Shown: positions 11,381 to 33,916, counted from the first letter of the stretch. The stretch is DNA of 64,000 nt from Eledone cirrhosa (GCA_964016885.1 OZ024741.1:268398001-268462000), one strand, 5' to 3'. Notes: generated from the sequence alone by a model not told the origin. Made by a program: numbers and translations.

Positions 11381-12796
11381 TTAAATTGATTGATGGGTTT
11401 ACTGATAGCTATTCTAGGTCGGGTATCCATGGTTGCAATAACAGCCCCCTGCTCTTCCCCTGTACTGGACTGGTATTTTATTTATCAATCTCGAAAGGAT
11501 GAAACACAAAGCTGACCTTGGCAGGATTTGAATTCAAAACATAGTAAGCTAGGACATATAACAAGGTATTTAATCCAACACCCTAAAGACGAGTTTGCCA
11601 ATTCACTGCTTTGGATATATTAAATATAACATAAACATTTGAAAAGCTCTGGAACCCACAAAGAAACTCTCAATGGTCCACTTGTAGATTATGACCATCC
11701 TGTTGTTGATTCCTGGCTTACATCAATAGCAGGATTACAACACACTCACATACACACACATATATATAGTTCCAGAATAACAAGATGAACACAAAGATGC
11801 AAAAACACAAAGTCTTATTAGTTTCATTCTTGGGAAACTATTATAAATATATATATATATATCTTTGAACATATTGGACATTAGTCATTCATCAGGAAAG
11901 AGCAAAGTTTGGAGAGAAAGAATGTTGGAAAAATAAAAAAGAAGAGCTTTTTTAAGATGGGTGAGGAGAGCAGGCAAGTAGTTTGGCATGTGGGGGTGAG
12001 GACCAAAGTGGAGACTTAGGTGGAAAGTCCAGGTGTATCATTGGTACTGTTACATGAAGTGCATTTCGTGGATGTGCATGTCATTGTTGTTTCTCCTTCA
12101 TATGTGTATGCATGTTTTGAAGCAATCATGCTTCAATGGAGGTGCAATATTGATTGAGAGAATGACAGAGCCTGGTTGAACTGAGAGAAAAACTGAGTAT
12201 AAGAGAAATGAGATGTAGTGTGTAAGAGAGAAGAGTGTGACAGTATGAACATGTGATGTGCATGGATGATAATCACTAGGTGAAGAAATGCCAGGAAATT
12301 CCAGTAGAAGGAAGCCACAGTAGACGAAGACCTGGGTAGAAGTAGTGAGAGCTGATCTCATATCGCTGAAGCTCACAGGGGAGATGATGAAGGAACACGA
12401 AAAGTGGAGAGATGCTCTGCTGAAAAGGATCTGTTCAACCAATGCAAGCATGAAAAAGCAGACGTAAATGCGATAATGATGATGATAATGAAAGTGTGTG
12501 TGTGTGTGTGTATATATATGTGTGTGTCTATGAAATTTGTAATATATATATATATATATAAATGAAAAGTATAGAAATTATTGTGAGCAAGAAGCCAAGA
12601 GTATTCCATAATATATATATATTCCGTAATATATATTATATATATATTATATATATATATATATAGTTATGTAATAAACAACATAAGATAATTATTTCAT
12701 TTACTTGAAAGCAAACAAATTTGCTTTCAGTCATCAGAATGAAAAAATCCTGGTGTATTTATTGAAAGTGGATTTGAAAAACAAAAATATAATAAA

Positions 12797-12907
12797 TATG
12801 TCATGAAGACAAACTGACCCAAGTTTGATAAATATATCTTAAAAAATAATACTGTGTTATTTTTTCCTAGACAGTAATCTTGCAAACAAATATTGTCCAC
12901 ACCCTGT
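12797..12907 (+). mobile_element. 3' end and right TIR fragment of the maT element family
   Basis: near-identical to 19803-19913 (gtcatgaagacaaactgacccaag...accctg-TA). Confidence 0.85.
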
Positions 12908-12953
12908 ATATATACATATATATATATATATACATACATATATATATATATAC

Positions 12954-12987
<34 letters not shown>

Positions 12988-13029
12988 TAAAATATAAGTA
13001 TTAATAAAATAGATGTCCTTTTGATCAAT

Positions 13030-13088
13030 TACATTTTATTATACATATTTCGGATGTACAACAGTACGTACTCATCAGACAAAATATA
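13030..13088 (-). ncRNA. Mirror copy of the hammerhead on the opposite strand
   Basis: minus: tatattttgt CTGATGA gtacgtactgttgtacatcc GAAA tatgta TA ataaaatgta. Confidence 0.65.
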
Positions 13089-13151
13089 ATGATACATGAC
13101 ATACCCTGAGATGTTAAATGGTTTAACATCTCCGGGTATGTCATGTATCAT

Positions 13152-13210
13152 TATATTTTGTCTGATGAGGACATACTGTTGTACATCCGAAATATGTATA
13201 ATAAAATGTA
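13152..13210 (+). ncRNA. Minimal type-I hammerhead ribozyme
   Basis: stem I tatattttgt/ataaaatgta (10 pairs incl. 2 GU); CTGATGA 13162-13168; stem II ggacatac-tgtt-gtacatcc (2 mismatches); GAAA 13189-13192; short stem III; predicted cleavage after AUA at 13200. Confidence 0.75.
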
Positions 13211-13379
13211 ATTGATCAAAAGGACATCTATTTTATTAATACTTATATTTTAATATTAATAACACCTGAAAAGTATTTTCCCGTTGAGTGCTTCCAATCT
13301 ACTGTAAAACTCATTCTTTGACATAATCATCGAATATTGTTTAACAACTTAATACTTATATATATATATATATATATAA

Positions 13380-13582
13380 TAATAAACAACACAATACAAT
13401 TATTCCATTTACCAAAGCTTTCACGAAGACAGGTGAGATCAACAGAGACGTCTGAAATTGTTCATCAGAAGGAAAAATTAAAAACTTTTCCTTCTGATGA
13501 ATGATTTCAGATGTCTCTGTTGAAATCACCTGCCTTCGTGAAACATTTGGTAAATGGAATAATTGTATTGTGTTGTTTATTA
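13380..13582. mobile_element. Fold-back element (family D) with a hammerhead-like motif and long stem II
   Basis: about 95-bp imperfect arms centred near 13481; + strand ttttcctt CTGATGA(13494-13500) atga...tcgt GAAA(13540-13543) catttgg TA aatggaa. Confidence 0.6.
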
Positions 13583-13822
13583 CATATTTAAATAGCTCTG
13601 TAGCATACATAGATCACTCTCCTTTCCTTTACCCTTTCCTTTACCCTTTCTACTTCATATATATATATATATATGTAAATGTGGTTGGTGTTAGGAAGGG
13701 CATCTAGCAATAGAAAACCTGCCAGATAGTCCTATACAAGCGAGACACGGTCACCTGACCAATCTTGCCTCAAGTAGGACAATTCCCATCTAACCCATGC
13801 TAGCGTGGAAGATAGATGTTAA

Positions 13823-31022: not shown

Positions 31023-31741
31023 TGTAACGGAATATTATGTGTGGTTGTAACGGTAAGTGGATGGATGTAACTGTTGGTATGGTGGTTTCGATGTAAAGAA
31101 AAATACCAGGATTGTGTTGTTACAAAGTTTATTTTATTATAACAATATTCAATTTAAATATTGGATGATAAAATCAATAACACAAAATATTCATACAATA
31201 ATTTGGTGGCTCTTCGAGCCACGTAAATTCAAGTATCACAGAATATGATTATAATATAATTTGTACTGTATCAGAAAGATACAATATGTGTAAACAGAAA
31301 TGGTGCGTGTAAAAATACTGAACTCACTATGAATGCGTGTATGCGTATCAGTATATTTAATTATTTGTATTGCAGGAGTCAGCGATCAGCCAGGAAGGTG
31401 CGAATAAGTGGCAGACTGGTTTTTCGTGATGAGAGCTTGTAAATACGACTTGTCTTGTCTGTATATCACTTCTTTTCTCCTTGGAGCGTAAACAACCCCT
31501 GTATTTATAAGAGTTGAAGTTAGAAGGATAGATATATCCTCTGAACTTTGGTTAGTCTCCCAAGGGATTAGTTTTCCAAGCGTAAACAAGTCAGAAAGAT
31601 GGATATATCCTCTGACCTATTTTCTGTCAGGCGTAAACACATCTGACCTGTGTTTAGCCTCTCGAGCGTAAACAAGTTACCACGGCTAGTCCCAGAGGCG
31701 GGAAAGCTCAGATTCAGTTTCGAATCTTCGCCACCGTTATA
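31023..31741 (-). mobile_element. Solo LTR (Gypsy-like)
   Basis: termini TGTAACGG...CCGTTAtA, 4-bp TSD GGAG (31019-31022 / 31742-31745); minus-strand TATAAATA at about 31502-31509 and AATAAA at about 31127-31138. Confidence 0.7.
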
Positions 31742-32048
31742 GGAGTAAGAGATGAGAAACAAAACATTAATTTATAGCATAGACATAGATGTATAAGATA
31801 GGTAGGACAGTCATCGTAATTTAGTGCATATATGTTTGATAATCATTAAAGACAATATGGAAGAAAGTTGTTTAAATGAATGTAAAATGAAATACGTCAA
31901 TGATTGACAAGAGGGGTGGGGGAAGGAGGTCAAAGATAATTGAGGATTCGAGCATCTTTACATAGAATGTTGTAATAAAGGAATTATTACATGAAATATT
32001 TTTAATAAACCCCAGTATTTTTCATGGGTACTATGCTCATATATATAT

Positions 32049-32912
32049 ATACAAAATTTAGTACAGCATCAACGAAGCCAAGGTTTCAGCCAAGCTAATG
32101 AATGCAGTCTCGGTGTGCAGCTAAGCACTCAATAGGGTATATAACCCTAGAGTTATAACATTACGTTTAGACAGCTTTGCAAATTGAAGACAGCGACCGG
32201 CAGAAGGGCCGCAGTGACCATAGCGCCGAAAAAGACTGAACTCGGGAAAAAATTTTTGACTAACCTGGACCATCAAGTCATACACAACACATGATATAAT
32301 ATACATCACATATAATCTACAATATCTCCGCTAGGTTTCTGTAAATCCGAAATCGACAAAATCCACTTGCAGGGGTCTGCAAGTTAATGGTTTTTGGAAG
32401 ATAGAACAATGGAGTTTACTTCGTCAACAAGTTTTTCGTTCTCGTCCGCTCGGGTGTGAATGCTAGAGTAAGCGCTGCTAGCAAGCACATGGTTTTCCCA
32501 AAGAGAGGTAACCCCCGATTTTGGTGGTCAATTCAAAATTTGGAACAAAGGAATAAAATTCCTTTACACAAACCGAATTAAGCACTCGACTAGAAGTTAT
32601 CAAACAAACATAAACAATTAATCGATCAATAGAATTGTCTAATTAAATGAATCAATTAATCGTTAATTCTAGTAGATACAAAATGATACAAAATTTAGTA
32701 CAGCATCAACGAAGCCAAGGTTGCAGCCAAGCTAACGAATGCAGTCTTGGTGTGCAGCTAAGCACTCAATAGGGTATATAACCCTAGAGTTATAACATTA
32801 CGTTTAGACAGCTTTGCAAATTGAAGACAGCGACCGATAGAAGGGCCGCAGTGACCATAGCGATGAAAAAGACTGAACTCAGGAAAAAATTTTTGACTAA
32901 CCTGGACCATCA
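32049..32912. repeat. 227-bp direct repeat pair (period 637 bp), probably a partial tandem of a non-autonomous DNA or rolling-circle element
   Basis: 32049-32275 vs 32686-32912, about 8 mismatches, several at CpG; small internal hairpins. Confidence 0.75.
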
Positions 32913-33096
32913 CGTCGATATATATGTAGAAGAGATATTTAATTTGTTGGAAATCCAACAAATATAGACTTTCCAGGGATAACTTGAACCGTTAAGGTAT
33001 ATTATCCTTGGTCATGTCAAATATTTATAAAACATTTTGTATTTTATCTGATGATGAAATATAGTTTTATAAATATAGTTTCCATTTATTTAATAT

Positions 33097-33140
<44 letters not shown>

Positions 33141-33253
33141 GTTTTCATATACGAAAACATATAAAGGTAGGCGAAGAAATTTCTACAGTTTAAAATACGA
33201 GATTTATTGCAGTAAACTATCAGGCTACATACAATATTTAATCGAATGAATTC

Positions 33254-33295
<42 letters not shown>

Positions 33296-33468
33296 GTTTC
33301 TACTTTTTAGGCACAATGCCAGCAATTACCCAGTGCATTACTAGTACTTTATTTTATCGACCTCATAAGGATGAAAGGCAAAGTCAACCTCGGCGGGATT
33401 TGAACTCAGATCGTAAAGGGACGTAACTATGCTGGAAAGCATCACGTCCGACCCTCTACCGATTATAT

Positions 33469-33885
33469 AATGATATTAAATAAATGGAAACTATATTTAT
33501 AAAACCATATTCTATTATAGGGTACCAAAAACTTTGGTATGCTTTCATCGGATAAAATAAAAAAATGTGTTTTATAAATTTTGACATAGCCAAGGAAACA
33601 TACTTTATCAGGTGAATTTTCCTTGGAATTTTCCAACTGATAAGGTATGTTTCCTTGGCTATGTCAAAATTTATAAAACACATTTTGTATTTTATCTGAT
33701 GAAAGCATACCAAAGTTTTTGGTACCCTTGAAATATATATAATAGAATAAATATGGTTTTATAAATATAGTTTCCATTTATTTAATATCATTGAATATTT
33801 ACTCCGGAAACTTGTCGAGTGCTCTGAATCAGTTATAAACATTTATATTTGTTGAATTTCCAACAAATTAAATATCCCTTCTACT

Positions 33886-33888
<3 letters not shown>
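33469..33888. mobile_element. Fold-back element (family C): about 145-155-bp arms plus about 95-bp tail; second partial copy at 32922-33102
   Basis: palindrome 33469-33792; right arm has an intact hammerhead motif, left arm has lost the GAAA region. Confidence 0.7.
33688..33749 (+). ncRNA. Minimal type-I hammerhead ribozyme (family C)
   Basis: tattttat CTGATGA(33696-33702) aagcataccaaagtttttggtaccctt GAAA(33730-33733) tatata TA atagaata; stem I 8 pairs. Confidence 0.75.

Positions 33889-33916
<28 letters not shown>

Follow-up and report, generated by a model that had tools for sequence, protein, structure and literature searches.

Hammerhead motifs in (TA)n-flanked fold-backs of Eledone cirrhosa as probable pieces of Hydra-type Penelope-like elements

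Results and discussion

We analyzed a 64,000-nucleotide stretch of the Eledone cirrhosa genome (GCA_964016885.1 OZ024741.1:268398001-268462000; hereafter the window), in which an initial annotation had described a cluster of short inverted repeats beside (TA)n that carry hammerhead ribozymes, and had assigned them to non-autonomous retroelements. The hammerhead motifs, which fall into several families denoted here by letters, are probably pieces of the pseudo-long terminal repeats (pLTRs) of autonomous families of Penelope-like elements (PLEs) with the protein motifs of the Hydra clade, and each fold-back, in which two arms stand head-to-head, likely records one insertion event with two cDNAs.

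Hammerhead families continuous with Penelope-like ORFs

Longer copies of families A, B, C and F run unbroken into an open reading frame (ORF) for a reverse transcriptase (RT) and an endonuclease 1.1-1.9 kb upstream of the hammerhead, and in some copies the start of an ORF lies 170-275 nt downstream of it; because of this continuity on both sides, we regard A, B, C and F as pLTRs. In family A, about 1.8 kb of untranslated sequence separates the hammerhead from an upstream ORF with RT and C-terminal endonuclease, and one nearly full-length copy (L064) contains a hammerhead, tail, ORF start, ORF, 3' untranslated region (UTR) and second hammerhead. The distance from hammerhead to hammerhead is 4,363 nt in L064 and 4,236 nt in a family F copy (L340); family F is linked to the endonuclease ORF at 17 loci. 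Family B has an endonuclease upstream on the same strand at 18 loci, picked by a 3' UTR query, and in family C the ORF lies upstream in L119 and L121 and downstream in L106. Copies attached to a GIY-YIG plus RT ORF, which the initial annotation had proposed to look for, thus exist for all four families, and its link to Penelope-like elements stands. Its statement that the elements have no ORF is accurate inside the window, but not for the longer genomic copies of A, B, C and F, and the term 'non-autonomous' finds no support for these families, whose longer copies reach the ORF.

The ORFs upstream of the A, B, C and F hammerheads contain YRDD, RWR or RWK, DKT, CxCx5C, CxxC and CxH motifs. RWR and DKT occur in A (L064) and F (L336), with K changed to R in both, and RWK and DKT in a further family (L068). 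Across seven aligned linker and endonuclease sequences from families other than B, residues C62, C64, C160, C163, E166, N179, C188 and H190 are invariant, and the third linker C is altered in one copy. The endonuclease aligns with the PF01541 (GIY-YIG) region of homolog P0080, and a structural model (pLDDT 92) gave T4 EndoII and Hpy188I, both GIY-YIG enzymes, as top matches at E>=0.43 (not significant); a single-sequence fold with pLDDT 47 was not used. RT and C-terminal GIY-YIG endonuclease in one ORF, the arrangement that marks a PLE, are thus predicted for A, B, C and F. The other PLE hallmarks, hammerhead-bearing pLTR repeats with an inverted, 5'-truncated partner and a tail at one end, are found in L064, L340 and 99 of 102 pairs. 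An N-terminal RWK motif, DKT in place of DKG, a CxCx5C linker, and CxxC and CxH around the conserved endonuclease E and N have been described as protein features of the Hydra clade, together with the lack of a CCHH endonuclease motif and of the IFD, and an Octopus family, Hydra-1_Obim, as combining a (TA)n preference with a hammerhead (Craig et al. 2021, PMC8557442); the elements here have the RWK-type and DKT motifs, the CxCx5C, CxxC and CxH set, and insertion into (TA)n.

A further Hydra-type family, with RWK, DKT and CxCx5C, lies at L068:6120-8458 (minus strand); stem II of its pLTR hammerhead measures about 85 nt, and several other families have stem II insertions of 50-95 nt. The family F ORF (L336, L340) contains a long asparagine-rich segment between RT and endonuclease; such a segment has also been described for rotifer Penelope elements.

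Anatomy and origin of the fold-backs

After deduplication, 99 of 102 head-to-head pairs combine a long with a short arm (A 31/32, B 19/20, C 16/17, F 8/8, D 15/15, H 10/10); the D and H pairs, 25 of 25 long plus short, were chosen without selection for the tail. Counted from the predicted cleavage site, the 3' ends fall at two TA-like tracts, at +56 and about +155 in A and at +44 and +143 to +155 in F; both tracts also occur within full-length copies, where they precede the start of the ORF. BLAST 3' ends at +170 to +190 extend into TA repeats, the true long ends being near +143 to +155. The 5' ends accumulate near a TCA(C/A)T sequence (A -102, B -117, C -124, F -115), with a TATA-like box 28-32 nt further upstream in three of the four families; the same pair of TATA and TCACT has been described in a rotifer pLTR (Arkhipova et al. 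2013). Of 30 A copies selected for the tail, not one begins at the cleavage site; the closest start is at -10, and 24 of the starts lie between -109 and -10. Among 488 arms, 11 have their start and 10 their end near the cleavage site.

The junctions between arms are distinct in 101 of 102 fold-backs, so the fold-backs are not copied as units. At non-CpG variant sites in B, C, D, F and H, the two arms of a pair are concordant at 310 and discordant at 27, against 118 discordant sites expected for independent copies. All 12 rechecked family A pairs are concordant as well, at two sites of which one is invariant. We give next to no credence to the idea that the fold-backs are DNA transposons resembling miniature inverted-repeat transposable elements (MITEs), with long terminal inverted repeats and TA target duplications: they are short, ORF-less, inverted and TA-flanked, but their arms are unequal, their centres differ at every locus and the arms run into an RT ORF. 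For A, B, C and F this idea is refuted, as the pairs show no fixed unit with equal inverted repeats and almost every junction is its own.

From the linkage, end sites, arms, junctions and (TA)n flanks observed in genomic copies, we infer a two-cDNA insertion with the following RNA steps. The TCA(C/A)T initiator, some 100-125 nt 5' of the cleavage site, would be the point where transcription starts. The GIY-YIG-type domain would cut both strands of a (TA)n tract, which looks alike from either side; the two DNA ends would then prime at different TA-like sites of the same source RNA, one end at a near site (+44 to +57) and the other at a far one (+143 to +155) that lies shortly before the ORF start. 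The two cDNAs would extend toward the RNA 5' end and be joined head-to-head, usually via a few shared bases. Since the template spans the hammerhead intact, it would be uncleaved or religated RNA, and any hammerhead cleavage would depend on a dimer or on assistance from protein. Most insertion products (about 95% in a small sample) are ORF-less and probably dead on arrival.

The variants common to both arms, and the junctions that often overlap by a few bases, would also fit a single cDNA that folds back and primes itself, possibly on an antisense template, so that the second arm copies the first, as was earlier proposed for rotifer Penelope. On this account the tailed arm, being the template, should not fall short of its copy on the 5' side. 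Of the pairs, 52 have the short arm extending further and 38 the long arm, and 12 are tied, which makes a one-way snap-back the poorer fit; the count could be blurred by subsequent trimming, and we judge self-priming to be fairly unlikely.

Cervera and De la Pena 2014 (PMC4209133) put forward a model in which the ribozyme cuts a tandem precursor to unit lengths that are ligated into circles, the circles serving as template. Copies spanning the cleavage site, some tailed copies that run far upstream and a core conserved across families are all compatible with such circles. However, a 5' edge between -100 and -125 is not explained by circles, the spreading F clan has a U4C core and a mismatched stem II base (see below), and cleavage was dispensable in vitro in a lizard PLE (PMC11167929). 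We consider this route unlikely.

A further alternative, which we think quite improbable, is that the short pLTR-only copies are non-autonomous units, SINE- or retrozyme-like (SINE, short interspersed nuclear element), with an internal promoter and copied in trans by the PLE protein. In a random genome sample (described below), a Hydra-type endonuclease lies upstream of 2 of 40 dispersed strict hammerhead matches, so most copies are pLTR-only, and families D, E, G, H and I gave no ORF link. Short copies do start near the proposed transcription start; an internal promoter has been described in D. virilis Penelope, and pLTRs able to act in trans in a rotifer. Such units would be expected neither to have a unique junction in 101 of 102 cases nor to be continuous, in A, B, C and F, with ORF-bearing copies; their start has a TATA-like box upstream of it, outside the short copy, and they are arranged head-to-head, not in tandem.

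Several observations weigh against the two-cDNA insertion of Hydra-type PLEs. Pfam and PDB sequence searches with the PLE proteins returned no direct RT or GIY-YIG match, and no fully intact ORF was seen among the fetched loci, where the longest frames are 727 and 644 aa. An ORF link was found neither in 20 loci of family D nor for families E, G, H and I, which were screened in the loci in hand. Hydra elements are generally shorter than 3 kb (Craig et al. 2021, PMC8557442), a typical and not a diagnostic length that the 4,363- and 4,236-nt elements exceed, and the Hydra-clade assignment, made from protein motifs, is to be read as putative. Most loci were picked by similarity to queries, and for A, B and C the query forced one long arm. 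Gene conversion after insertion, or two RNAs transcribed from a single master locus, could also account for the concordance of arms. Six of the 30 tail-bearing A copies extend past the proposed start (-208 to -740), which requires read-through, 3'-pLTR or circular RNA as the template in some cases. Lastly, the RNAfold minimum free energy structure of the window copies of A and D is not the hammerhead fold (z -0.23 and 0.35).

Hammerhead motifs in the window

A type I hammerhead descriptor (CTGANGA, stem II, GAAA, stem III, UH, stem I) finds three complete hammerheads in the window, with cores starting at 13162(+), 26770(-) and 33696(+), against a mean of 0.07 and a maximum of 2 in 100 local dinucleotide shuffles. 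Families A, B and C have the CUGANGA, GAAA and UH core with stems I to III. The Rfam search proposed by the initial annotation was run and gave no hammerhead above the gathering score, and none at E<=10 over 11000-35000; its output in the window consists of sub-threshold hairpin matches, such as microRNA models. The arms and motifs are as follows.

11765..11934, minus: old family E copy; CTGATGA at 11895 and stem II, without the GAAA box; 3' flank at 11765-11848
12648..12781, minus: family D2 single arm; core starts at 12737; GAAA box and half of stem III deleted; absent from the initial annotation
12984..13123, minus: family A short arm, -83 to +56 from the predicted cleavage site; core starts at 13078, second stem II pair broken
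13122..13356, plus: family A long arm, -78 to about +155, with a tail of about 100 nt; pLTR of a 4.36-kb Hydra-type PLE
13150-13212, plus: family A complete type I hammerhead; predicted cleavage after 13200
13367..13480, minus: family D short arm; core starts at 13468; stem I imperfect
13487..13658, plus: family D long arm; core starts at 13494; 20 loci gave no ORF link
14272..14359, plus: second family E copy; CTGATGA at 14313, without the GAAA box
18372..18594, unstranded: family G fold-back, cut within stem II, with the 3' hammerhead half only; left boundary approximate
22715..22790, minus: degenerate single hammerhead of another family; CTGGTGA at 22778
23817..23964, unstranded: family H fold-back; core at 23898(+) with a 4-bp stem III but without stem I, which was lost at the junction
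25863..26073, unstranded: family A remnant fold-back; starts at +5/+11, without ribozyme core
26097..26489, minus: family F long arm and pLTR of a young 4.24-kb Hydra-type PLE; hammerhead with a U4C core (CCGAAGA at 26324) and a palindromic stem III
26495..26557, plus: family F short arm, -18 to +44
26585..26845, minus: family B single long arm; complete hammerhead, core starts at 26770
32923..33109, unstranded: rearranged family C fragment; CTGATGA at 33048, remaining ribozyme deleted
33469..33626, minus: family C short arm; core is CCGATGA, without the GAAA box
33634..33887, plus: family C long arm; complete hammerhead, core starts at 33696

Of the cores that had been named as having pairable stems, those now placed at 13162(+), 26770(-) and 33696(+) are complete, whereas the others are imperfect or variant: at 13078(-) the core is intact and a G>T change disrupts the second stem II pair, at 13494(+), as at 13468(-), the core boxes are intact and stem I is imperfect, and at 26324(-) CCGAAGA stands in place of CTGANGA. 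The sites called partial are indeed damaged motifs at 14313(+), 18500 (the 3' half of a hammerhead alone), 22778(-), where the core box is CTGGTGA, and 23898(+), which has lost stem I. The one at 11810 is the 3' flank of family E alone, the hammerhead part lying at 11895(-); like 14313(+), that copy is without the GAAA box, as are nine listed relatives. Nor do nearly all the motifs sit in inverted repeats, since the copies at 26770 (family B), 22778 and 12737 are single arms, and the tttt(a/g)t...tat(a/g)ta context given for the core is common to A, B and C and absent from D, F and H. The palindromic stem III is borne out: in A, B/C, D and F it pairs only between two copies, and in H it can fold alone.

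Covariation of stem II between families A, B and C had also been proposed, and is seen in 17 hand-chosen sequences of the A/B/C clan, where five of six pairs change on both sides and 97.6% of cells pair, against 34-63% when the alignment is slid. These figures are not a probability, because the sequences are related. In a larger set of 101 distinct stem II sequences, a C-N mismatch occupies position four in almost every case; the descriptor itself requires the first pairs in this set, so that only the inner ones give an independent check.

Family H is abundant, with 17 probe matches in 0.8 Mb and copies in, for example, the window (23817-23964), L150, L156, L160 and L210. Its hammerhead has a 4-bp stem III with a palindromic loop, a covarying stem I and a U-U mismatch at the stem II base, and it is a candidate for monomer activity; no parent element was found.

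Family F and the U4C core

Family F is young, its copies being 95-100% identical. Its core reads CCGAAGA (U4C) in all 20 copies that were picked either with a 3' UTR query or randomly, and in 99 of the first 100 among the matches listed of 6,305 to a pattern that allowed C or T; the family also has a mismatch at 10.1-11.1, the stem II base. In an F subfamily, a double change preserves the palindrome of stem III, ACAATTGT to ACAGCTGT, and a one-sided form, ACAGTTGT, is also common. CCGANGA cores occur in at least four other families, some with CTGA relatives; a longer relative of family G (L339) has a CCGAGGA core. A natural viroid U4C variant had lowered activity in vitro and was tolerated in vivo (cited in Perreault et al. 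2011, PMC3088659), and the same substitution is here fixed in a young clan with more than 6,000 genomic copies. The fixed U4C in the F clan, the most unusual feature of these elements, supports, and does not prove, a pairing role over cleavage, and the clan offers a natural test of whether cleavage matters.

A more speculative proposal, for which we see a minor chance, is that the hammerhead is mainly an RNA pairing module, whose palindromic stem III joins two pLTR copies, one for each subunit of a dimeric RT-endonuclease, which would write a long and a short arm at the cut (TA)n ends. This would explain the kept palindrome, the drift to U4C and the lack of starts at the cleavage site.

Abundance in the genome

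The same descriptor was applied to a random sample of 80 evenly spaced 10-kb stretches (799,400 nt) of the 3.0-Gb genome, in which homologs of named Argonauta sequences at about 40% identity would fit an octopod host. It gave 67 strict matches, or 51 without two tandem arrays that account for 16, against 0-2 in each of ten shuffles. At this density, three matches in a 22-kb interval are expected (P 0.17-0.28), so what had been described as a cluster is of average density. The sample extrapolates to 191,000-251,000 motifs in the genome (bootstrap range 146,000-386,000), an order of magnitude supported by exact patterns, which match 77,026 times for the A/B/C clan and 6,305 times for the F clan, more than 83,000 combined, with no match to reversed-pattern controls. 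The association with (TA)n holds in the same sample, where (TA)4 occurs within 250 nt downstream of 48 of the 67 strict matches against a background of 0.28. At 64-84 per Mb, there seem to be more hammerheads here than in published counts, the descriptors of which differ. The axolotl genome is about ten times larger. It has been reported to hold 126,247 motifs (PMC7229834; bioRxiv 10.64898/2026.07.22.740005).

Tandem arrays at L187:281-3381 and L190:8630-9683 consist of units of about 310 nt, each with a type I hammerhead; they resemble classical non-LTR retrozymes, and the one in L190 is flanked by an inverted copy. The window elements themselves were considered as such retrozymes and rejected, as the window contains no hammerhead tandem array and the arms are head-to-head and ORF-linked.

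Other features of the window

Three more long fold-backs next to (TA)n, at 26883-26990, 27047-27188 and 30041-30492, have no hammerhead core and are possibly PLE fragments of other families; the last has a 93% relative with unequal arms in L198. An inverted pair at 24355-24637 and 28440-28677 contains CTGACGA but gave no hammerhead fold; the repeat also occurs in short tandem form in L281. An ORF-like stretch at 12.0-12.5 kb, beside family E, was considered as a PLE endonuclease and rejected, as tblastn found no match in the window; it matches a different repeat at 10.7, 21.4 and 44.1 kb. A Tc1/mariner-like DNA transposon at 18606-19915 has terminal inverted repeats flanked by TA and an uninterrupted 351-aa frame (18733-19788), with a right-end remnant at 12800-12916. 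A decayed LINE-type RT fragment (LINE, long interspersed nuclear element) lies at 20094-21546, with relatives at 10427-10846 and 42783-44378. At 14872-15000 on the plus strand, a T-rich tract ending in CAG and followed by an open frame is possibly a host exon.

Comparison with known elements

The elements resemble the Hydra PLEs, Hydra-1_Obim included, as described in PMC8557442, in their RWK-type, DKT, CxCx5C, CxxC and CxH motifs, a hammerhead near the end, insertion into (TA)n and a 5'-truncated inverted partner with the tail at one end. They differ in their length of 4.2-4.4 kb with a 3' UTR of 1.1-1.9 kb, in tails of about 50-100 nt against 30-40, and in forming many families with more than 83,000 motif matches; a U4C core is absent from the Hydra motifs listed in its file S2.

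Poseidon PAc of Anolis carolinensis (Frangieh et al. 2024, PMC11167929) cut and extended both strands in vitro, with two internal RT start sites that define the tail, and ribozyme cleavage was dispensable there. The likeness would extend to two start sites, both strands extended and an uncleaved RNA template, the last inferred for the elements here. The PAc start, as described, is an AC-rich stem-loop within the ORF without homology to the target, whereas both end sites here are TA-like, precede the ORF start and are separated by about 100 nt. Two features of the genomic copies add to the in vitro picture of PAc, namely that each arm uses one of the two sites and that these sites resemble the target.

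The minimal PLE hammerheads of Cervera and De la Pena 2014 (PMC4209133) are likewise type I with a palindromic stem III, in many variable families and mostly in scattered, truncated copies, some of which lie within 100-700 bp of one another on opposite strands. Their reported numbers, about 2,000-9,000 per genome, are lower, and the stem III palindrome of 6-9 nt and the conserved internal C-N mismatch in stem II set the motifs here apart from those described there. Animal non-LTR retrozymes share the type I fold, the relation to PLEs and high copy number (PMC7229834; bioRxiv 10.64898/2026.07.22.740005), but are described as tandem ORF-less units, unlike the head-to-head, ORF-linked elements of the window.

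Hydra PLEs with hammerheads and (TA)n targeting, including one Octopus family, are therefore already known; the initial annotation had called the elements possibly uncatalogued, which may hold for the particular families and does not hold for the kind, represented by Hydra-1_Obim. What appears to be new is the scale, the longer (4.2-4.4 kb) elements, the U4C fixed in a young clan and the strict rule of one long and one short arm. We found no literature report of this expansion, core variant or insertion rule in a search that left Repbase and Dfam outside, and Lunse et al. 2017 may already cover U4C or cephalopod variants; an O. vulgaris repeat paper has no whole-word mention of hammerhead, ribozyme or Hydra. 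Because Rfam detects none of these motifs, they will be wrongly entered in repeat annotation, whether as unknown repeats, as MITEs or as hairpins of microRNAs.

Tens of thousands of young insertions made under a strict rule constrain the models of how PLEs insert and of what purpose their hammerheads serve, and name the exact sites. If the hammerhead should prove to be a pairing module, this genome, with roughly 150,000-390,000 motifs, would be the largest natural mutational record of that mechanism.

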